Shown here: piece by piece, positions 1,551-61,550 of the stretch
Layout of the letters: the number at the start of each line of letters is the position of its first letter
Position numbering within the stretch: position 1 is the first letter of the stretch
From: Clostridia bacterium
GTDB taxonomy: Bacteria > Bacillota > Peptococcia > Peptococcales > BICA1-8
DNA length: 64,000 bases
Reading direction: 5' to 3'
Assembly (NCBI GenBank): GCA_012720075.1
Contig: JAAXZE010000007.1
Span: 465-64,464, forward strand
Notes under the pieces: model-generated
What the model saw: only the letters and a program-made list of their open reading frames with translations
What the model was told of the DNA's origin: nothing
Databases searched by the model: none
Position numbers and translations under genes: made by a program

Positions 1551-1700
1551 TATTGATGCATCCGATGAAAGTTAAGCTTTGAAGATGCATCTGCTTTCAA
1601 GCAAAAAGCATGATGCATCCTTTAAGCTAGCTCAGGTGCAAGTGCGTCAAGACTGTTTCACATGCATGAGATGCAACCTAAACACTGGTTACTAGGTTAC
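1551..1700 (+). repeat. Word array: palindromic GATGCATC x3 at 28-29 nt spacing, then the RBS-proximal module CCTAAACACTGGTTACTAGGTTAC
   Basis: GATGCATC at 1555, 1584 and 1612. CATGCATGAGATGCAACC at 1661-1678. The terminal module aligns with the spacers upstream of cof, uvrA and the hydrogenase operon. Confidence 0.7.
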
Positions 1701-1724
1701 TATAAGATAATTGAGGTGATTGAC

Positions 1725-5484: not shown

Positions 5485-5494
5485 TTACTTACGG

Positions 5495-5765
5495 GTAAAT
5501 TTATTGGGTCTGATAGTACTCAAGAGTTGAGATATTGCGTCTGACATCTCCTCAATGGTTATATTTTTGGTCTGACAATATTAATTGGTTAACATTTTGA
5601 CCTTTAAAATAGAACGATTTGTATATGTGTATAATTAAATTTTATCAGACGCAAAAGATTGCCTTTTAGAACTTTCTAACCCATGAGTTAGACATCCTGG
5701 CAATTGTCAGACGCAAAAGATAGGCTTGTAGACAAATTATCTGACCCGCAAGATAGACCCTTAAG
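5495..5765. repeat. Palindromic word-array element (GTCTGA / TCAGAC words) inserted between the two transketolase subunit genes
   Basis: GTCTGA at 5508, 5539 and 5570 (31-nt period). The inverse TCAGACGCAAAAGAT is at 5645 and 5707 (62 nt apart), around an AT-rich centre. The right end GACCCGCAAGATAGACCC matches the ends of the uvr spacer elements. Confidence 0.8.
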
Positions 5766-5790
5766 ATAAAAGAAACGGAGGTTTTAATAT

Positions 5791-7924: not shown

Positions 7925-7968
7925 TTCATATACTTACACACTTACTAGCTCTTGATTACCAGTACTAA
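7925..7968 (+). repeat. RBS-proximal repeat module upstream of ftsE (CTTACACACTTACTAGCTCTTGATTACCAG)
   Basis: Shares ACTAGCT..TTGATTAC.A with 23175-23194, and CTTACACAC words with 17631-17665 (reverse complement) and 25778-25895. Confidence 0.55.
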
Positions 7969-10994: not shown

Positions 10995-11148
10995 CTGTAG
11001 CTACAGTTATTAAGGTTAAGGTTTCGCTGCGCTAGGTTAAAGGTTGAGGTTAGAATACAAAAACGTGACATTGTGTCACCGTGCCATCGTGACATCGATT
11101 TTCAGTTGGGAAAGTTGGAATGTAATTCTCAACTCTCCATTCTCAATT
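10995..11148. repeat. Composite intergenic repeat, module order C-B(rc)-A-E-D(rc)
   Basis: CTGTAGCTACAG palindrome at 10995-11006. B module at 11010-11052. A module at 11062-11098, nearly identical to 1508-1545. D module at 11125-11148 is the reverse complement of 17671-17699. Confidence 0.85.
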
Positions 11149-11193
11149 ATTTCTTCTATAGCCACCAGCCAATCCAGAAGGGGGAGCTCTTTA

Positions 11194-12435
11194 TTGGTTT
11201 TTTTAAAGCTTATCCCTATGATTTTTTATAATCTTATATCCCTTTTTGGCCAGCCTATTTTTTGGCTTGTTGTGTTTATTATTTGGTTTCAGTTTAGGCG
11301 AATGGCTAAAATGAAGAGTGAGTTTTTTAATGTGCCGGAAGAAAGTGTACTCCGCCCTACCATTATTGCCACTGCTTTTGGAATTCTTGGCGGAGTGATT
11401 GGGAGTTTTGTCCTGGTTTTTGTAGGGGTTTCCGTCTTAGAGGTAGGGATTCAGTATCTGTGGGTGTTGGCTATTCTTTTTATGCTTATTGATCAGAGGT
11501 TTATGTGTTTTGCATATGCAGGGGGCATGGCCTCCATAGTAAACTATTTTTTTGGTTATCCCAATATCAGCATTCCCCAGGTTATGGCTTTAGTAGCAGT
11601 TCTTCATTTAGTGGAAGCATTGCTCATATTGTTAAGCGGGCATTTGGGCGCGGTGCCCATTTATGCCAAAAGTAAAGACGGCAGGCTGGTAGGGGGCTTT
11701 AATCTACAAAAATTTTGGCCCTTGCCTATAGTTGCTATGGTGGCTGTAATAGTTCCTGAAACAAATATTTTTTCTGATGTGATTAAAATGCCGGAATGGT
11801 GGCCCTTGATCAAGTCCAATCTGCCTGCCGACAACGACAACCTGCTTTACATGATGGTTCCTGTTATTGCCGGCCTTGGTTATGGAGATATCACCCTGAC
11901 TACCCATCCCCGGGAAAAAAGCCGTTATTCTGCTTTTTTCCTGGCTGTGTTTAGTATTATTCTTTTAGGGCTGGCTGTACTTGCCGCTAATTATCCCCGG
12001 TTGGCCATTTTAGCCGCTCTATTTGGCCCATTAGGTCATGAATTGGTAATTTTTATTGGAAGATATCGAGAATTTTCCCGGGAGCCTAAATTTGTCAGTC
12101 CACCCCAAGGTATTATGGTTCTTGATGTCTTGACTTCTTCTCCCCTTAGTTCGGCCGGTATCGGACCAGGTGATATAATTTTGTCCATTAACGGGATGGA
12201 AGTAAATAACAGTAACGATCTGGAATATGCCCTCCTGTTTGCCGGAAGTACCATTGAAATCCAGTATTTTTCGGAGCAAAAGAAAGTACTAAAAACGAAA
12301 AACATTCAAGGCGTAATGCCCGGAAAACCTTTGGGTTTAATAATTGTTCCGGACAATTATGGTTTTTCTTATCTGGATATTTCCCGAGGAGAAGGATTTT
12401 TCAAAAGATTAATGAAAAAGTTAAAAGGCAAGTAA
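11194..12435 (+). CDS. Polytopic membrane protein with a C-terminal PDZ domain
   Basis: Multiple TM helices, then PDZ (GIGPGDIILSINGMEV). Listed ORF 11044 extends upstream across the repeat element. TTG 11194 lies 7 nt after GGGGGAG; ATG 11218 is an alternative start. Confidence 0.75.
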   Translation: MVFLKLIPMIFYNLISLFGQPIFWLVVFIIWFQFRRMAKMKSEFFNVPEESVLRPTIIATAFGILGGVIGSFVLVFVGVSVLEVGIQYLWVLAILFMLIDQRFMCFAYAGGMASIVNYFFGYPNISIPQVMALVAVLHLVEALLILLSGHLGAVPIYAKSKDGRLVGGFNLQKFWPLPIVAMVAVIVPETNIFSDVIKMPEWWPLIKSNLPADNDNLLYMMVPVIAGLGYGDITLTTHPREKSRYSAFFLAVFSIILLGLAVLAANYPRLAILAALFGPLGHELVIFIGRYREFSREPKFVSPPQGIMVLDVLTSSPLSSAGIGPGDIILSINGMEVNNSNDLEYALLFAGSTIEIQYFSEQKKVLKTKNIQGVMPGKPLGLIIVPDNYGFSYLDISRGEGFFKRLMKKLKGK

Positions 12436-14914: not shown

Positions 14915-16320
14915 CTAAATCCTGTATTTACCCAAAGTTCGGTCTCCTTTAACCACATGGACGGCGCAAGAAAAACAAGGGTCAAAGGAGCGAATTACCC
15001 GCCCCACTTCAATCAGGCTGTCCATATTATTTATCGGTGTACCTATTAATGCTTTTTCTACAGGACCAGGGTTATCTTTACCGTCCCTGGGGGAGAAATT
15101 CCAGGCGCTGGGAGTTACTACCTGGTAATGGGCAATCCGGCCGTTTTTTATTTTTACCCAATGGCCTAAAGGCCCCCGCATGGAATCAATTAATCCTGTA
15201 CCTTCGGTCTCAGACAAAGGTTCATATTTTTTTAGTGAACCTTGGTTTATGTTTAGGTCTTCCAGCCAGGTAAACATGCCTTTTACAATTTCCCTTAGCT
15301 CTAGAGCCCGGGCAATGTTCCGGTCATTGACAGATACTCCCCTTCGATATATACCGTTAATCCAGAGACGGGCCAAGGGCCCTCCCTCAAATGGCTTATC
15401 CTGATAACGGGGGGCTTTAATCCAGGAATAAGCTCCCGGTTTTTGGTCGTCGGGGATGGTTTTTTCCTCATATGGATGACGGCCTGTATCCACTTCTTGA
15501 TAAAAGGAATTTGTTACTTCTTCGGTTATAAGTTTTGGCTCAATGCTTTTAGCTTCCTGAGAAAAATTTTCCGCAAAACCCGGTTTAAGCAAAGGTGATT
15601 TGTTATCGGTCAGGGGAAACATGCCATAGGTTATTAGGTTGCCGTAACCTTTGCCGATTTCATAATAATCGGGGTAATATTGGGCTACTGTATAGACGTC
15701 AGGAATATATTTTTCTTCCACAAAGGTTTGGATTTCTTTAAGGATGGAGAAAAACATATTTATTTTTTCAGCATTAGGTTTTTCCGCTATTCCGCCGGGC
15801 AAAATGGTTTGCTGATGGGGGCTTTGGCTCCCCAGATGGCCACCAACTGGTGGGCCTTGGCGCTTAAATGGATGGCAAGCCAGTAATTTTCGAACAGTGT
15901 TTTTTCAATATTGGGAGGAATTCGATAATCACCGGGCATTAACGGACGAAAAGGCGATGTTTCCGGACCCCGGGCATAATCGGGTAAAGTCAAGATATAA
16001 AACTGGCGCAGATGATTCTGGATAAAATCCGCCCCTACTATCAGGTTGCGAAGGAGGTAACCGTTATGGGCCGGGCTTATCCGGTATGCATCTTCTAAAG
16101 CTAAGGTACTGGCAAGGGCATGGGCAGTGGAACAAATACCGCATATTCTCTGAGAATAAAGGGGAGCATCCAAGGGGTGACGGTTTTCAAGCATTAGTTC
16201 AAATCCCCGGAATAAAGGGCTGTTAACCCAGGCATCGGTAATCACACCGTTATATACTTCTACTTCAACTTCCAAAGGTTCGTGGATTCTGGTTAGAGGA
16301 AAAACCTTTTTTTTCACCAC
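14915..16320 (-). pseudogene. [NiFe] hydrogenase large subunit, split by a 1-nt frameshift in a C5 (plus-strand G5) run at 15817-15821
   Basis: ORF 15787..16320 carries the N-terminal ligand motif RICGICSTAH. ORF 14915..15802 carries the C-terminal DPCFSCAVH plus a cleavable tail. The conserved GAKAPHQQTILPGG is recovered only by shifting -1 after GCC CCC. Confidence 0.8.
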
Positions 16321-17604
16321 TTATTTCTCAGTCCTTTTTCTTTTCCAAAATTTCAATTTGTACAACAAGGAATTATTCCTTTTGGCTAATACTTTGTTTA
16401 AATCTTTTTGCAGGGTTTTTTGGGTATGCAGTATCTCCTCCAGTTTATCCATTACTAATTCCTGGCTGACTTCATTTTTTAACTCGGAAGTCTTTGAAGT
16501 TAGAGAATGAAGAATAATTTCTTCTACAGTAACCTTTTCGCCGGGGCCGGGCTCCTGCAATTGGGTGCCTTTAATTAAATTTCTACCCAATCTTCCGGTA
16601 ACAACGGAGCCGATGGCGTGGGCCGTGATACCCAAGGCTGCCATACCTCCAATGGCGGCCCCTACCTTTTCCACATGGGTTTTGCCCCAAGGTAAATAGG
16701 TATCCGGTAAATGTTTGAAATAGGGCATCATACCATCGGGGAAATGAGGACTGGCACAACCAATGCAGGGAACTCCCGCTTCAACGGGCCAGTTAACATG
16801 GTTGTTCCACTGGCGGATGGGGCAATCGGCATAAGTGACCGGTCCTTTGCAGCCGATTTTATAGAAACAGCCTTCATCCCCAGGATATTGGGCAAATTTT
16901 CCATCATTAAAATCGGAACGCCTGTTGCACAGGTCGTGGATGGTTTTGCCGAAAAACATGGTCGGGGAATTATAATCGTTTAATTCAGGCTCACCGTACA
17001 TTATAAGGTGGGCCAGAGTACCGATCATCCAATCGGGATGGGAGGGACAGCCCGGGATGTTAATAACTTTGCGGTCCAGTACTTCGGAAACGGCAACGGC
17101 TTTGGAAGGGTTGGGGTAAGCAGCACCCGGTCCGCCAAAGGCGGCACAATCACCTACGGCCATGACATATTTGGCATGGGGAGCCAGCTCTTTTAAAAGT
17201 TCGATGCCCGGTATCAGACGGCCTTTTCGTTCCATTACCAAGTTGTATCTTCCTTTATCTCGGGTAACTACGGAACCTTCTATTATTAAAATGAACCGGC
17301 CGGAGTCATTTTCCACTGTTCTTTGCAAATTCTCAATGGCCAAGTCCCCTTGGGACTGCATAAATAACCAGTGGTAGCGAAGGTCGATCATTTCTAAAAG
17401 CAGTTTTTTTAAGTCCGGGTCGAAAGTATTATCCAGTGAGATGGTTTCTCCGGTACAAGAGCCCAATTCAAGCCAGATCACCGGTGTTCGGTCTATTTCC
17501 CCTTGGGCTAAGGCCGCAAAAACCGGTGACTTTAAAAGACCGGCCAAACTTATCCCCATAGTGGTTTGCATACATAGTTTTATAAATTCTCTTCTACTTA
17601 GCAC
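16321..17604 (-). CDS. [NiFe] hydrogenase small subunit, Tat-exported, with an unusually long C-terminal tail
   Basis: Twin-arginine signal MLSRREFIK. FeS cysteine clusters (GSCTGE, GDCAAFGG, CPIRQW..CIGC). TM anchor GAAIGGMAALGITAHAIGSVV, then about 85 charged residues. GTG start after GGGGAG. Confidence 0.9.
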   Translation of the reverse strand: MLSRREFIKLCMQTTMGISLAGLLKSPVFAALAQGEIDRTPVIWLELGSCTGETISLDNTFDPDLKKLLLEMIDLRYHWLFMQSQGDLAIENLQRTVENDSGRFILIIEGSVVTRDKGRYNLVMERKGRLIPGIELLKELAPHAKYVMAVGDCAAFGGPGAAYPNPSKAVAVSEVLDRKVINIPGCPSHPDWMIGTLAHLIMYGEPELNDYNSPTMFFGKTIHDLCNRRSDFNDGKFAQYPGDEGCFYKIGCKGPVTYADCPIRQWNNHVNWPVEAGVPCIGCASPHFPDGMMPYFKHLPDTYLPWGKTHVEKVGAAIGGMAALGITAHAIGSVVTGRLGRNLIKGTQLQEPGPGEKVTVEEIILHSLTSKTSELKNEVSQELVMDKLEEILHTQKTLQKDLNKVLAKRNNSLLYKLKFWKRKRTEK

Positions 17605-17630
17605 AATTTATTTCTCCCCGCCTAAAATAT

Positions 17631-17799
17631 TAGTGTTTTAGTGTGTGAGTGTGAAAGTGTGTAAGATTAGTTGAGAATTGAGAATGAGAGTTGAGAATGT
17701 TCCTTTCCACTTCTTCCAACAATCCATTTTTTCAGCTAAATATATTAACCTTAACCTAGTGAAGCGCAACCTTAACCTTAAAAAACTGTAGAACTGCAG
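17631..17799. repeat. Composite intergenic repeat, module order F-D-E-B-C, in the leader of the hydrogenase operon
   Basis: F GTGTGTGAGTGTGAAAGTGTGTAAG. D TTGAGAATTGAGAATGAGAGTTGAGAATG. B TTAACCTTAACCTAGTGAAGCGCAACCTTAACCTTA. C AAAAACTGTAGAACTGCAG. Collinear with the reverse complement of 10995-11148 apart from the missing A module. Confidence 0.85.
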
Positions 17800-17970
17800 C
17801 CTCGGAAAAGCTGTGCTTTGAAAATAATTCAAAGCTAGACTTTTTCTAATTGGTATCTTCTCCAATATTTACATGTAATATTTATTTTTTTCGATTGAGG
17901 TTTCAAAGAAACGGGTAATAAATTATGATATAATCACAACTTAGAAGAAGATAAGCGGTGGTGGAAACTT

Positions 17971-19953: not shown

Positions 19954-19954
19954 G

Positions 19955-20290
19955 CTTTGGGGCTATTTTTGGGGTCGGCATGACGGCGTGACGTCTTTGG
20001 GGTTACAATGCACGTCAGTATGACGTCTTACAGGTTATGTCACAGGTCCGCATGACGGCCTACAGGTTATATTTTAGGTCCGCATAATGGTTTAGGTGAT
20101 AATTTACAGAAAATATTTATATTTTGCTGACCCATGATATTGGCTTGGTAGACGTCATGCTGACCAAAAAGTAGCGGAGGAGCCGTCATGCCGTCCCAAA
20201 ATGTTGCCTGTTAGCCGTCATGCAGACCCTAGAGTTTAACCCGTTAGCTGTAATGCTTGACCCTAAAAGATGACCCACTAGCTACAGGAG
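19955..20290. repeat. Imperfect palindrome of about 335 nt built from four degenerate ~32-nt units per arm (core GCATGACG / CGTCATGC)
   Basis: Left-arm cores at 19978, 20018, 20050 and 20082. Right-arm inverse cores at 20153, 20184, 20216 and 20249. Symmetry centre near 20120. Confidence 0.85.
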
Positions 20291-20299
20291 GGAATAGAC

Positions 20300-23128: not shown

Positions 23129-23365
23129 GCATGACGGCTCTAAAGCTATTCTGCACGTCAGTATTAAAACAATAACTAGCTTGATTACTACAGGCAGCTT
23201 GCGCAAAAAGTATTATAAAAAAACCGACCTAATATTTTACTTGGTAGACGTCACACCGACCCAATGTTTAACTCCGGTGACGTCACTCCGGCCTTATATC
23301 TAAACCCGTGAGCCGTCATGCTGACCCGAAAGATTGCAAAGCAGCCATCATGCCACCCAAGGGAG
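23129..23365. repeat. Second member of the GCATGACG/CGTCATGC element family, in the uvrA-uvrC spacer
   Basis: GCATGACGGC starts immediately after the uvrA stop. CTTGGTAGACGTCA (23240) is shared with 20144. GCCGTCATGCTGACCCGAAAGAT lies at 23302-23324. An internal ACTAGCTTGATTACTACAGG module lies at 23175-23194. Confidence 0.8.
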
Positions 23366-25239: not shown

Positions 25240-25392
25240 AGATTACGCCAACATTGTTGGCTATCTTACGCCTTGCTAGATTAAAGGTTGAGGTTAAGGT
25301 TAAAGGGTATTAACGTGACATCATGATACCAACCATTTCAATTTTTTTTAAGCTTTCGATGTCACGGCGTCACGGTGACACGATGTCACAAA
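25240..25392. repeat. Composite intergenic repeat, module order B(rc)-E(rc)-A(rc)
   Basis: Reverse complement is collinear with 2888-3043. Contains the palindrome GCCAACATTGTTGGC and a duplicated TTACGCC. Confidence 0.85.
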
Positions 25393-25432
25393 ATCTTTGT
25401 CATCAGTAACTATTTATAAGGGGGTGTGTGGA

Positions 25433-25777: not shown

Positions 25778-25895
25778 TCAGTGTGTAAGTATGACATCTT
25801 AAATTTTATTCTGATTTTCAGTGTGTTTGTGAGTAAGAGATTTTTTAATACTATAGCACTAACCCACTTAAACACTTATGCACTCACTAGCAACT
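25778..25895. repeat. Palindromic word element (GTGTGTAAG/GTGAGTAAG left, CACTTAAACAC/CACTCAC right) ending at the cof RBS
   Basis: Left CAGTGTGTAAG (25780) and CAGTGTGTTTGTGAGTAAG (25820). Right ACCCACTTAAACACTTATGCACTCACTAGCAAC (25862-25894). Confidence 0.7.
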
Positions 25896-26816: not shown

Positions 26817-27011
26817 ATGAATAGTGCCTCTGAAAAGCTTTTACAAAGGGAAATGGAAAAAGCAAGGCGCCGCCTGCATGCTTATGTTAATGGTGATATA
26901 AGCCTCTTGTTAAATGAGGAAACCTACCGGCTTAGTACGGAGCTGGACCGGCTTATTGTCAATTTAATGAAAAAAAGCCAAAGAAATAAAATGCAAAAAA
27001 CTCAACTTTAA
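26817..27011 (+). CDS. Spo0E-family aspartyl-phosphate phosphatase-like small protein
   Basis: 64 aa, helical, with STELDRLIVNLMKK matching the Spo0E SxxLDxLI signature. GGAGG SD. Confidence 0.6.
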   Translation: MNSASEKLLQREMEKARRRLHAYVNGDISLLLNEETYRLSTELDRLIVNLMKKSQRNKMQKTQL

Positions 27012-27034: not shown

Positions 27035-27121
27035 AAACTAATACTAAAAAAAAGGGTAAAATAGTATTTAAGAAAATTTATAGTTTATAAGGAATAAGTA
27101 AAGTAAAGATGGAGGAGTAGT

Positions 27122-27868
27122 ATGGAACTGAAGATAGATTTACATACCCATACCATAGCCAGTGGGCATGCCTACAGTACGTTGCTGGAAAATTTACAAG
27201 AAGCTAAGGCCAAGGGCTTGAAAATGTTGGCTCTAACCGATCACGGGCCACAACTAGCCGGTGGGCCCCAGTTATTTTATTTCGGTAACTTAAGAGTTTT
27301 GCCCCGGGAATATTTAGGAATAGAATTATTGCGGGGAGTGGAAGCCAATATTTTAGACTGTGAAGGCACCTTAGACTTGCCTGACAGATACCTGGCAAAA
27401 TTGGATATTGTTTTGGCGGGTTTTCACCCCGGATGTTACGTTAGCAAAGACGTGGAGGAGAATACACGGGCCCTTATTAAAGCCATGCAACATCCCTATG
27501 TTGATGTCATTACCCATCCGGGAAATCCCGAATATCCCATTGACCAGGAAAAACTGGTGGAAGCCTCCAAGGAGTTAGGAGTAGCCCTGGAGATTAACAA
27601 CAGTTCTTTAGTGGGAAGTCGCAAGGGAAGTCTGGAAAATTGTCGGAAGATTGCGGGATTGGCTGCTGAAAAAAGTTCCTTAATTGCCGTTGGCAGTGAT
27701 GCCCATTGGGCACCGGCTGTGGGGGAATTGTCGAAAGCCATAGAATTAATTACTGAGTTCGGCATAAAAGAGGAACAAATATTAAATAGCAGTCCAGACA
27801 AAGTGCGAAATTATTTAGCCAGGAAAAAAGGACCCAATCCTATTCATGTAGCTTCCCCACAGGTTTAG
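27122..27868 (+). CDS. PHP-domain phosphoesterase (YcdX-like)
   Basis: DLHTHTIASGHA, LTDHGP and GSDAH metal-ligand motifs. Confidence 0.8.
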   Translation: MELKIDLHTHTIASGHAYSTLLENLQEAKAKGLKMLALTDHGPQLAGGPQLFYFGNLRVLPREYLGIELLRGVEANILDCEGTLDLPDRYLAKLDIVLAGFHPGCYVSKDVEENTRALIKAMQHPYVDVITHPGNPEYPIDQEKLVEASKELGVALEINNSSLVGSRKGSLENCRKIAGLAAEKSSLIAVGSDAHWAPAVGELSKAIELITEFGIKEEQILNSSPDKVRNYLARKKGPNPIHVASPQV

Positions 27869-31955: not shown

Positions 31956-32123
31956 ATGGCTCATAGAATAACGGATGAGTGTTTAGCCTGTGGAACATGT
32001 ATTGATGAATGCCCTGTAGGTGCAATCAGTGAAGGTGATATTTATGAAATAGATCCCGAACTTTGCACAGATTGCGGTGCCTGTGCTGAAGCTTGCCCAA
32101 CAGGAGCAATTGTTGAAGAATAA
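31956..32123 (+). CDS. 2x[4Fe-4S] ferredoxin (55 aa; below the ORF-track cutoff)
   Basis: My translation is [43 protein letters not shown], with two CxxCxxCxxxCP motifs. GGGGAGG SD. Confidence 0.9.
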
Positions 32124-39799: not shown

Positions 39800-39807
39800 G
39801 ATGATGA

Positions 39808-39867
39808 GGTTAAGGTTAAGGCTAAGGTTAAGGCTAAGGTTAAGGTTAAGGCTAAGGTTAAGGTTAA
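39808..39867 (+). repeat. Hexanucleotide tandem repeat GG(T/C)TAA x10
   Basis: Ten contiguous units starting 9 nt after the gpmI stop. The unit is the reverse-complement word of repeat module B (AACCTTAACC). Confidence 0.95.
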
Positions 39868-39959
39868 GGTTTTACTTAGGTATAAAAGATATATTTTCAT
39901 TAGGTTTAGCTTTTTTGGATTATAGGTAAGCAAACATAGGGGTATAGTAAGCTAATAAA

Positions 39960-41382
<1,423 letters not shown>

Positions 41383-41504: not shown

Positions 41505-41600
41505 TGGACATTAGGCATTAGTATCTGTGGTCATTTGTGATTAGATTAATTTAAAATTAATACTAGTCACCATTTACCAGTCACTAAAGACGAGGGAGGT
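41505..41600. repeat. Imperfect palindrome ending at the secG RBS
   Basis: GTGATTAGATTAATT (41537-41551) versus the reverse complement of AATTAATACTAGTCAC (41555-41570). The arms extend with GTGGTCATTTG / CATTTACCAGTCAC. Confidence 0.65.
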
Positions 41601-58158: not shown

Positions 58159-58166
58159 GAAATTCT

Positions 58167-58279
58167 GAGGTTTAGGCTAAGGTTAAGGTTATATTGTATT
58201 TAATATAATAGCTTTATTCCTTTCTCAACCTTAACCTAGCGTAGCGAAACCTTGATCTTAATTTGTTTTAAACTGTCAC
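58167..58279. repeat. Repeat family copy (hairpin of B-module words, then modules B and C)
   Basis: TAGGCTAAGGTTAAGGTT (58173-58190) is inverted relative to AACCTTAACCTAGCGTA (58227-58243). CTCAACCTTAACCTAGCGTAGCGAAACCTTGATCTTA matches 17746-17780. Confidence 0.8.
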
Positions 58280-61131: not shown

Positions 61132-61195
61132 AAAAGAGATAAATTAATAAATAAATATCTGACTTCCGACTTCTGATTTCAGACATCTATTTCAT

Positions 61196-61550
61196 GGGGG
61201 TGTAATGGTTTCGACGGGGGAATTCGGTGGCTTGAGAAGCGAGTCGAGGTCGCACTGGCTCGTTAAACGTTGCACAAAAAATAAACGCTAAAAACAATAA
61301 CTTAGCTTTAGCTGCTTAATTGCAGTCTAACCTCCTACTTGCCTTTGCCTGTGGGGCGAGCAAGGGGGTCACATTAGCAGGCTACTCTTAAGTAACCGCC
61401 TTGTAGCTTAAGGGGAAACTTACAGGGCTGGCCGATGGAAATCCTGTTTGTGGGAGTTCCTGAGGCGAGATGCCAAAACACAAACTACGCTCGTAGATGC
61501 TCAGGTGGTCGATCTTCCGGACAGGGGTTCGACTCCCCTCACCTCCACCA
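61196..61550 (+). ncRNA. ssrA: tmRNA (SsrA), predicted tag reading frame GCT AAA AAC AAT AAC TTA GCT TTA GCT GCT TAA (AKNNNLALAA)
   Basis: The 5' GGGGGTG pairs with the 3' CACCTCCACCA acceptor stem, including G3:U. T-arm GGGGTTCGACTCCCC. The tag ORF ends ..LALAA-TAA. Located directly after smpB. Confidence 0.93.

Follow-up and report, generated by a model that had tools for sequence, protein, structure and literature searches.

The 64,000 nt stretch of DNA analysed here (hereafter the window; contig JAAXZE010000007.1, positions 465-64,464, forward strand) carries a NiFe hydrogenase operon whose first gene is preceded by a 79 nt tract that is free of G on the mRNA-sense strand. This gene (termed hyd) encodes the small subunit, a 427 aa protein with a twin-arginine (Tat) N-terminus, for which there are matching gene calls in the related loci L114, L117 and L244 (related loci are given by such numbers throughout). 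It is followed by genes for the large subunit and a cytochrome b, and a maturation protease is encoded on the opposite strand. A small subunit with 100% identity was found only in a Logan contig, and the closest relatives with a name are metagenome-assembled genomes of Peptococcaceae, Peptococcales and Clostridia (69-82% identity). The kept gene order comprises ftsEX, a ctpB-like gene, a gene for a PDZ protein and the hyd operon, then the divergent uvrB, uvrA, uvrC, a holin gene and cof. The features of the hyd leader are as follows, with arrays called by Tandem Repeats Finder (TRF) and the Shine-Dalgarno sequence abbreviated SD.

17602-17622, minus strand: SD (GGGGAG), spacer and GTG start of the hydrogenase small-subunit gene, from the sequence and gene calls
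17623-17701, minus strand: G-free tract of 79 nt directly 5′ of this SD, from base counts
17627-17655, minus strand: promoter-like TTCACA-17-TAATAT inside the tract, from a consensus scan (9/12 matches)
17630-17662, minus strand: octamer array TTACACAC / TTTCACAC / TCACACAC / TAAAACAC in the sense direction, TRF period 8, 4.1 copies
17671-17698, minus strand: heptamer array ATTCTCA/ACTCTCA in the sense direction, TRF period 7, 4.1 copies
17700-17734, minus strand: C-free purine-rich tract of 35 nt (a G-free run on the plus strand), immediately 5′ of the G-free tract
17747-17784, minus strand: AAGGTT-type hexamer module (TTAAGGTTAAGGTTGCGCTTCACTAGGTTAAGGTT; repeat families D5, I5 and I6), distal in the hyd spacer

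The base counts for 17623-17701 on the plus strand (C 0, A 26, T 29, G 24) leave no G on the minus strand, which reads AACATTCTCAACTCTCATTCTCAATTCTCAACTAATCTTACACACTTTCACACTCACACACTAAAACACTAATATTTTA, and the 3′ end of the tract lies 18 nt from the GTG at 17604. The hyd leader is also present in L244, an independent Logan assembly from another sequencing run, with 100% identity over 431 shared alignment positions. Thus the tract is real and an assembly artefact is excluded, and the G-free stretch ending 18 nt before the GTG stands as a preliminary description of this DNA had reported it. The tract consists of two abutting arrays, the octamers being of the CACACTNA type, and it is G-free because the repeated units themselves lack this base. 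As a bare statistic of base absence the run is weak and unremarkable, and the tandem-repeat structure explains it. It is the second-longest C-free run on the plus strand of the window, a longer one of 83 nt being located at 27045-27127. When each spacer was resampled under a region-wise first-order Markov null, a G-free or C-free run of at least 79 nt appeared in 21% of trials, a frequency explained by the near absence of C from several other leaders.

Short tandem or near-tandem words also occur in other leaders of the window and after some stop codons. All of the arrays listed below are intergenic, lying between called genes.

1677-1702, plus strand: prfB leader, TAAACACT followed by two copies of GGTTACTA (TRF 1687-1702, period 8)
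7933-7953, plus strand: ftsE leader, CTTACACACTTACTAGCTC (G=3 and C=11 in positions -60 to -16)
11124-11148, plus-strand sense: second ATTCTCA heptamer array (TRF period 7, 3.6 copies), about 45 nt before the probable PDZ gene start
20260-20288, plus strand: uvrA leader, ACCCTAAAAGATGACCCACTAGCTACAGG, with which a large array of inverted words (19954-20299; families D3, D4 and I12) ends on its 3′ side
25853-25894, plus strand: degenerate CACTNNNN octamer run (CACTAACC CACTTAAA CACTTATG CACTCACT; G=3 and C=14 of 42) upstream of the Cof-type hydrolase gene
39807-39871, plus strand: AAGGTT hexamer array of 10.8 copies (TRF) that starts 7 nt after the gpmI stop; G-rich post-stop class
40046-40075, plus strand: CACAAGT/CACTAGT heptamer array of 4.3 copies (TRF period 7) that ends 20 nt before the eno ATG and abuts the SD
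41562-41584, plus strand: heptamer-type run ACTAGTC-ACCATTT-ACCAGTC-ACT upstream of secG, from reading of the sequence
58168-58261, plus strand: AAGGTT array that lies 9 nt beyond a stop codon and pairs with an AACCTT arm further downstream
61161-61184, plus strand: GACTTCY heptamer array with C>G (TRF), 11 nt upstream of the transfer-messenger RNA (tmRNA) gene, an RNA gene that has no ribosome-binding site (RBS)

The preliminary description quoted strings from seven of these leaders and read in them a shared TAAACACT..ACTAG module. Five of the seven strings lie exactly at the coordinates given, whereas those of uvrA and ftsE are displaced by 1 nt and 2 nt, respectively. The module itself dissolves on alignment: eight leaders of the window and two from L114 show a mean column identity of 36% with two invariant columns. 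CACTAGY is not enriched (four occurrences found, 6.35 expected), and AACACT..ACTAG occurs twice with 0.19 expected. The alignment and these motif counts rule out a single homologous module across leaders. What the leaders share is a class, that of short tandem or near-tandem words, which falls into several families and is not one sequence. Words of the CACT/CACAC octamer type precede hyd and cof, with similar CACACTTAC words before ftsE, and ACNAGTC heptamers precede eno (the 4.3 copies of CACAAGT) and secG, while prfB has the duplicated GGTTACTA. The ACTAG string corresponds to the core of the ACNAGTC heptamer arrays. The density of CTAG in the spacers of the window is 4.4 times that in the genes, because several of the repeat words contain it.

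A general depletion of G in leaders, which the preliminary description implied, was not found. For the 42 leaders of the window with a spacer of at least 60 nt, positions -60 to -16 contain on average 8.2 G and 7.1 C among 45 nt. Only four of the 42 (ftsE, PDZ, hyd and cof) have three or fewer G, and nine have three or fewer C; the longest C-free run averages 25.8 nt, compared with 17.7 nt for the longest G-free run. At the gathering score of Rfam 15, the tmRNA (61196-61550) is the only RNA in the window that reaches threshold, and the arrays have no match.

Some of these loci have further features. The longest open reading frame (ORF) of the PDZ gene begins at a TTG at 11044 and runs through repeats (11044-11193), and the likely start is the TTG at 11194 that follows GGGGGAG. 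The prfB gene carries at 1791-1797 the classic programmed +1 frameshift site CTTTGAC, with an internal SD-like GAGGGA before it. The spacers before uvrA (19954-20299) and uvrC (23129-23317) are large inverted word arrays in which families D3, D4 and D14 are common, with GCATGACGGC/GTGACGTC as left words and GCCGTCATGC/GACGTCA as right words. Inverted GTCTGAC/GTCAGAC words akin to them are found at 5485-5790.

The arrays have a distinct orientation with respect to gene ends. We scored arrays with a period of 6-9 in the window, using curated starts, and in eight related loci, using called genes. Within 70 nt upstream of a start, 13 arrays have more C than G on the sense strand, two have more G than C, and one has equal numbers (binomial p=0.007). 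At 50 nt or less from the start, all 12 of 12 arrays have C>G. The bias is reversed within 60 nt after stop codons, where six arrays have G>C and one has C>G, and most of these are AAGGTT hexamers. An array in L126 was rejected as a counter-example, since it overlaps the stop of an upstream 78 aa ferredoxin-like ORF and therefore falls in the G-rich post-stop class. GTGTG words near 25780 and 25820 are antisense upstream of cof, but lie more than 70 nt from its start. AAGGTT-type arrays located 0-50 nt after stops are always G-rich in the sense direction (39807-39871, 58168-58191, 25284-25303 and 11012-11050), and such post-stop arrays are also present in L117 (11507-11568) and L118 (1476-1498). 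The AAGGTT/AACCTT hairpin at 58160-58265 is significant (z=-2.9). Scanning viral sequences for AAGGTT arrays gave no more than scattered single matches.

The same orientation bias before starts was observed in a cross-phylum sample. Scanning GTDB species genomes for (ACNAGTC)3 yielded at least 119 loci, and the matches listed include Firmicutes (many Dialister; Peptococcaceae BICA1-8), Cyanobacteria, Acidobacteriota, Gemmatimonadota, Planctomycetota, Bacteroidota, Proteobacteria, Actinomycetota and others. Among the matches listed, an ORF led by an SD follows within 45 nt of the C-rich orientation in 10 cases and of the G-rich orientation in one, with 9:0 at 35 nt. The claim that the repeat elements are polar relative to the downstream gene is therefore upheld in both samples. 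Dialister is especially frequent among the matches listed, and there ACNAGTC arrays are mixed with CCTAATC and CCTAGCT heptamers. Array/anti-array hairpins are present at some ACNAGTC loci, for example L143, L144, L166 and L225.

Comparison of orthologous leaders revealed that the arrays turn over between species, spread between leaders and are stable between near-identical strains. The hyd leader arrays differ among the window, L114, L117, L238 and L243, relatives with 72-85% protein identity. In L114 (85%) the leader carries three copies of ACTAGTC, and in L117 (74%) it carries 8.4 copies of ACTAGCC/ACTAGTC/ACCAGTC abutting the SD. L243 (72%) has 5.5 copies of AACCTT with the AAGGTT complement before the array, L238 (82%) has other words, and in L118, L239 and L242 an extra ORF of 161-165 aa stands in front of hyd, preceded in L239 by a GAAGCAA/TGCTTCT repeat hairpin. 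Likewise, the words upstream of uvrB in L113 differ from those of the window.

Individual unit families recur before different genes. ATTCTCA precedes both hyd and the PDZ gene in the window, and the CACACTTA unit family is found before hyd in the window and, in the sense direction, upstream of the PDZ gene in L114 (6388-6423). ACTAGTC-type arrays are present in the window, L114, L117, L118 and L126; ACTAGTC/ACCAGTC units precede hyd in L114 and L117, eno and secG in the window, and both cof (8.6 copies of ACTAGTC) and the PDZ gene (5.6 copies) in L118. GACTTCT occurs before the tmRNA gene in the window and 23 nt upstream of the ctpB-like gene in L117. Among L239, L240 and L241, which are 99.98% identical over 21 kb, no array indels were found in this comparison of few genomes, and the hyd leaders of the window and L244 do not differ in length. 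A hypervariable repeat number was therefore rejected, as the few near-identical loci compared show no variation.

A palindrome, AATATTTACATGTAATATTTA, lies at 17864-17884 in the divergent uvrB-hyd spacer and is a candidate operator; it is kept in L117, L118, L238, L239 and L243 while the surrounding repeats differ. Three independent Logan assemblies (L114, L115 and L116) break off within the ACTAGTC array, each of them 64 nt before the hyd start. Arrays of this kind break short-read assemblies and also inflate ORF calls, as with the TTG ORF from 11044.

The preliminary description had further suggested that the elements could act as translation or stability modules. Modelled RBS opening energies give no backing to this role, since in a set of 10 leaders the native arrays are scattered over the full range of the random replacements (percentiles 0 to 100), with no trend and no consistent effect. 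For hyd, opening the RBS (-18 to +12) is predicted to cost 16.9 kcal/mol with the native tract, 6.4 kcal/mol with its reverse complement and 7.7 +/- 2.3 kcal/mol with 80 random replacements. The idea that a G-free leader frees the RBS was rejected, given that the opening energies are inconsistent and the hyd effect is in the opposite direction. In the minimum free energy (MFE) structure of the hyd leader, the repeat words AAUUCUC and CUUACACA (in DNA, AATTCTC and CTTACACA) pair with GAGAAUU and UUGUGCUAAG (GAGAATT and TTGTGCTAAG) around the start and the Tat-motif codons. The whole hyd leader nevertheless folds no better than shuffled sequences (z=-0.61), and the G-poor arrays of L117 and eno form no significant predicted structure.

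The repeat anatomy, polarity and turnover observed here, together with the observed lack of a conserved module and of general G depletion, lead us to favour an explanation in which the leaders contain repeat arrays that have been filtered by orientation. These arrays would resemble the short tandemly repeated repetitive (STRR) sequences of cyanobacteria and the TAACTGA repeats described below, and would not constitute a dedicated, sequence-specific regulatory module. We put the probability of this explanation at about one half. The two abutting arrays of the hyd tract, an ATTCTCA-type heptamer and a CACACTNA-type octamer of about four copies each, would then be drawn from a large and fast-turning-over STRR-like population that occupies the longer spacers between genes in this uncultured Peptococcaceae-like Firmicute and its relatives. 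Those arrays that persist beside an RBS would be the ones whose mRNA-sense strand is rich in C, A and T and almost devoid of G. In this orientation an array should offer essentially no ATG, GTG or TTG codon, no SD-like motif and no G-C or G-U pairing of its own, and would separate the genuine RBS from the promoter or preceding gene as a translationally silent spacer. The opposite, G-rich orientation would be tolerated just after stops and far from starts. Polarity would thus chiefly reflect a selective filter on the positions and orientations open to repeats, presumably one that acts against spurious initiation. Read in the sense direction, the pre-start arrays (465 nt in all) contain three potential start codons and no SD-like tetramers; read in antisense, they would contain 48 and 11, respectively. 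This fits a filter by which only the initiation-silent orientation survives beside an RBS. Such arrays are probably transcribed as 5′ untranslated region (UTR) or intercistronic RNA; those that end 11-27 nt before a start and abut the SD must be in the transcript if that SD is used.

Several observations count against orientation filtering as the whole explanation. The polarity sample is small, its 16 arrays include some at orthologous positions so that their independence is limited, and the counts cover the window and eight related loci. Among the matches listed in the cross-phylum scan, the G-rich orientation follows a long open frame in 49 cases and the C-rich orientation in 12, a ratio inflated by the stop codons that GACTNGT contains in all three frames. 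The tmRNA gene has no RBS, and the C-rich array that precedes it by 11 nt indicates that the filter is not purely one of translation initiation. Finally, the modelled opening energy of the hyd RBS predicts that the native tract strongly sequesters the start region, which resembles an active regulatory contact more than it does a neutral spacer.

This last point argues for an active cis-regulatory leader, in which arrays pair with the initiation region or with a purine arm and set translation or mRNA processing, as at hmw1A via RNase III. The predicted pairing of the hyd repeats around the start agrees with such a function, as do the ftsE RBS, whose opening energy reaches the 97th percentile, the L239 leader, in which repeats and anti-repeats form a strong hairpin (z=-3.5) beside the SD, and the hmw precedent itself (PMC12721329). 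However, the opening energies lack a trend over the 10 leaders, and the z-score of the hyd leader is unexceptional. Moreover, a hairpin between the purine tract and the repeats (17664-17740; MFE -10.4 kcal/mol) is not significant relative to shuffles (z=+0.55), and on this basis an hmw-like repeat/purine-tract hairpin was rejected for hyd. The repeat-start pairing is not conserved in L114, which has different repeats and different Arg codons, and repeat number is constant in near-identical strains. We regard a regulatory leader as unlikely on balance. Slightly less likely again is a protein-loading platform, in which the C-rich run of about 80 nt would serve as a Rho utilization (rut)-like site, or as an array for a binder with a footprint of about 7 nt such as a cold-shock protein or S1, and would couple transcription or mRNA fate to downstream translation. 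Sites of the rut type are C-rich, G-poor and unstructured over about 70-80 nt. The hyd tract, with 24 C and no G in 79 nt, is the only one here with this composition over such a length, and its leader without significant predicted structure and its periodicity of 7-8 nt are compatible with loading. S1, Csp and CsrA-type binders have been proposed for TAACTGA repeats (PMC4679880). On the other hand, a sequence-specific binder is hard to reconcile with units as different as ATTCTCA, CACACTTA, ACTAGTC, GACTTCT, TATCGAC and AACCTT. Most arrays span 23-60 nt and fall below the full Rho footprint, and attenuation would be an unexpected form of control for housekeeping genes such as eno, secG and ftsE.

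A role at the level of DNA, with arrays supplying -35-like hexamers and promoter spacing and the tract lying mostly upstream of the transcript, appears no more probable than the loading platform. The TTCACA-17-TAATAT inside the tract ends about 23 nt before the GTG, and given this promoter-like site hyd transcription might start downstream of most of the tract. Read by eye, outside the consensus scan, L114 has TAGTCA-17-TATATT at the equivalent place, and the box AATAT(A)TTTAG is common to the window and L114 despite their different arrays. The C-rich array upstream of the tmRNA gene is likewise positioned where a promoter is expected. However, 9/12 matches are weak and five such sites occur in the 500 nt region where 1.9 are expected, and an mRNA that began there would have its SD at the very 5′ terminus. 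The arrays of L117, eno, L239 and L238 abut the SD and leave no room for a -10 box and start site, and eno is probably co-transcribed with gpmI. Plain compositional heterogeneity without biological regularity could account for the length of the run, as the Markov resampling and the 83 nt run at 27045-27127 illustrate. This chance explanation is largely refuted and very improbable, since the tract is periodic, its units recur at other leaders and in relatives, and the orientation bias is significant in two independent samples.

Heptamer repeats are over-represented in bacterial spacers, and the STRRs of cyanobacteria are an established class (PMC4692102). The arrays described here belong to this known STRR/heptamer class, in a Firmicute lineage where they are dense: they comprise at least three head-to-tail units of 6-9 nt, are intergenic, form dispersed families and differ in content between relatives. 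As in cyanobacteria, several heptamer families are dispersed through intergenic regions (bioRxiv 10.1101/2022.06.06.494920; PMC4692102), and in Nostoc heptamers are located near start codons and promoters, often 30-100 nt from starts or -10 boxes (bioRxiv 10.1101/2022.06.06.494920). Among the matches listed, ACNAGTC arrays were found in the cyanobacteria Capilliphycus, Moorena, Lyngbya and Oscillatoria. The classic STRR units CCCCAGT and CAACAGT share an AGTC core with ACNAGTC when rotated. The present host differs in phylum, and no strand-composition rule relative to the gene was found in the STRR sources cited. Some cyanobacterial families are G-rich (GGGGAYT) and have been studied as quadruplexes, unlike the G-poor pre-start arrays described here.

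The TAACTGA repeats of marine Beggiatoaceae, also present in cyanobacteria and Bacteroidetes, lie in the forward direction just before start codons, and a translational role has been proposed for them (MacGregor 2015, PMC4679880). They are tandem heptamers of 2-6 copies, overwhelmingly intergenic and without predicted structure of their own (PMC4679880). The present arrays similarly include tandem heptamers that are intergenic, oriented toward starts and distributed across unrelated phyla. In contrast to TAACTGA, a single unit that ends a few nt from the start and usually replaces the RBS, they form many families of period 6-8 (ATTCTCA, CACACTNA, ACNAGTC, GACTTCY and others), end about 11-50 nt upstream with GGAGG-type SDs between array and start, and have a complementary G-rich post-stop class, in a Firmicute host. 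The (ATCTTTC)n array in the 5′ UTR of hmw1A/hmw2A of Haemophilus influenzae is G-free, has at least 11 copies, is phase-variable and forms a hairpin with a G-rich arm that is cut by RNase III (PMC12721329). The hyd tract resembles it in being a G-free heptamer array in the sense orientation next to a G-rich tract, and differs in that the arrays here have 3-9 copies and no length variation in near-identical strains, with no significant hairpin at hyd. G-poor or CA-rich unstructured leaders, such as the tobacco mosaic virus omega leader and CA multimers, are translational enhancers. The near-absence of G over tens of nt upstream of the start, in a C-rich and unstructured context, is common to these leaders, to rut sites and to hyd, but enhancers and rut sites are defined by function, and the modelled accessibility of the RBS is not improved here.

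Other features of the window were noted that lie apart from the leader arrays. A dispersed element of about 40-80 nt, composed of GTGACAT/GTGTCAC octamers and ending in CGAAA, is present at 2876-2956 and, inverted and with 84% identity, at 25322-25402. Further copies are located at 1511-1550, 11065-11098 and, in L113, 91-123. In the related contig FZPS01000062.1 (L113) the element occupies a different place, upstream of uvrB, and its sequence distribution suggests that it may be mobile, similar to repetitive extragenic palindromic (REP) sequences or miniature inverted-repeat transposable elements (MITEs). A 21-base pattern taken from this element had no match in GTDB species genomes and matched one contig in metagenomes. 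Two small ORFs occupy nominally intergenic regions (31956-32123 and 26818-26990). One encodes a 55 aa protein resembling a 2x[4Fe-4S] ferredoxin, and the other, of 57 aa, is syntenic with a gene called in L118, L238 and L239 whose product weakly matches Pfam SpoOE-like. The hydrogenase large subunit is split in the window into ORFs at 15787-16320 and 14915-15802. At the split site, a run of five G on the plus strand (five C on the gene strand) at 15817-15821 leaves the C-run 1 nt shorter than in the near-identical assembly L244, where the gene is intact and encodes 468 aa. This split is probably a homopolymer sequencing error and does not denote a pseudogene.

The function of heptamer-class repeats has been open since the first cyanobacterial reports. 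The literature was searched for ACTAGTC/ACCAGTC as exact units and for related strings, and no paper was found. An explicit positional rule of composition, C-rich before starts and G-rich after stops, was not found in the heptamer-repeat literature cited. The arrays follow a simple regularity: ahead of a start their sense strand is G-poor, and behind a stop it is G-rich. A cross-phylum sample shows the same bias. It is conceivable, though doubtful, that this amounts to a cross-phylum composition code at gene ends, with C-rich/G-poor arrays before starts, G-rich complements after stops, and interchangeable families (ACNAGTC and its relatives) moving between leaders. Such a code, if functional, would be a general, sequence-independent form of transcript punctuation for handling ribosomes, Rho or RNA chaperones at gene boundaries, and the hyd tract would represent an extreme case in which the start region is masked as well. 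A bias that does no more than filter out spurious starts and SD-like motifs would explain where repeats of this kind survive; one that reflects function would point to a composition-based element at gene boundaries.

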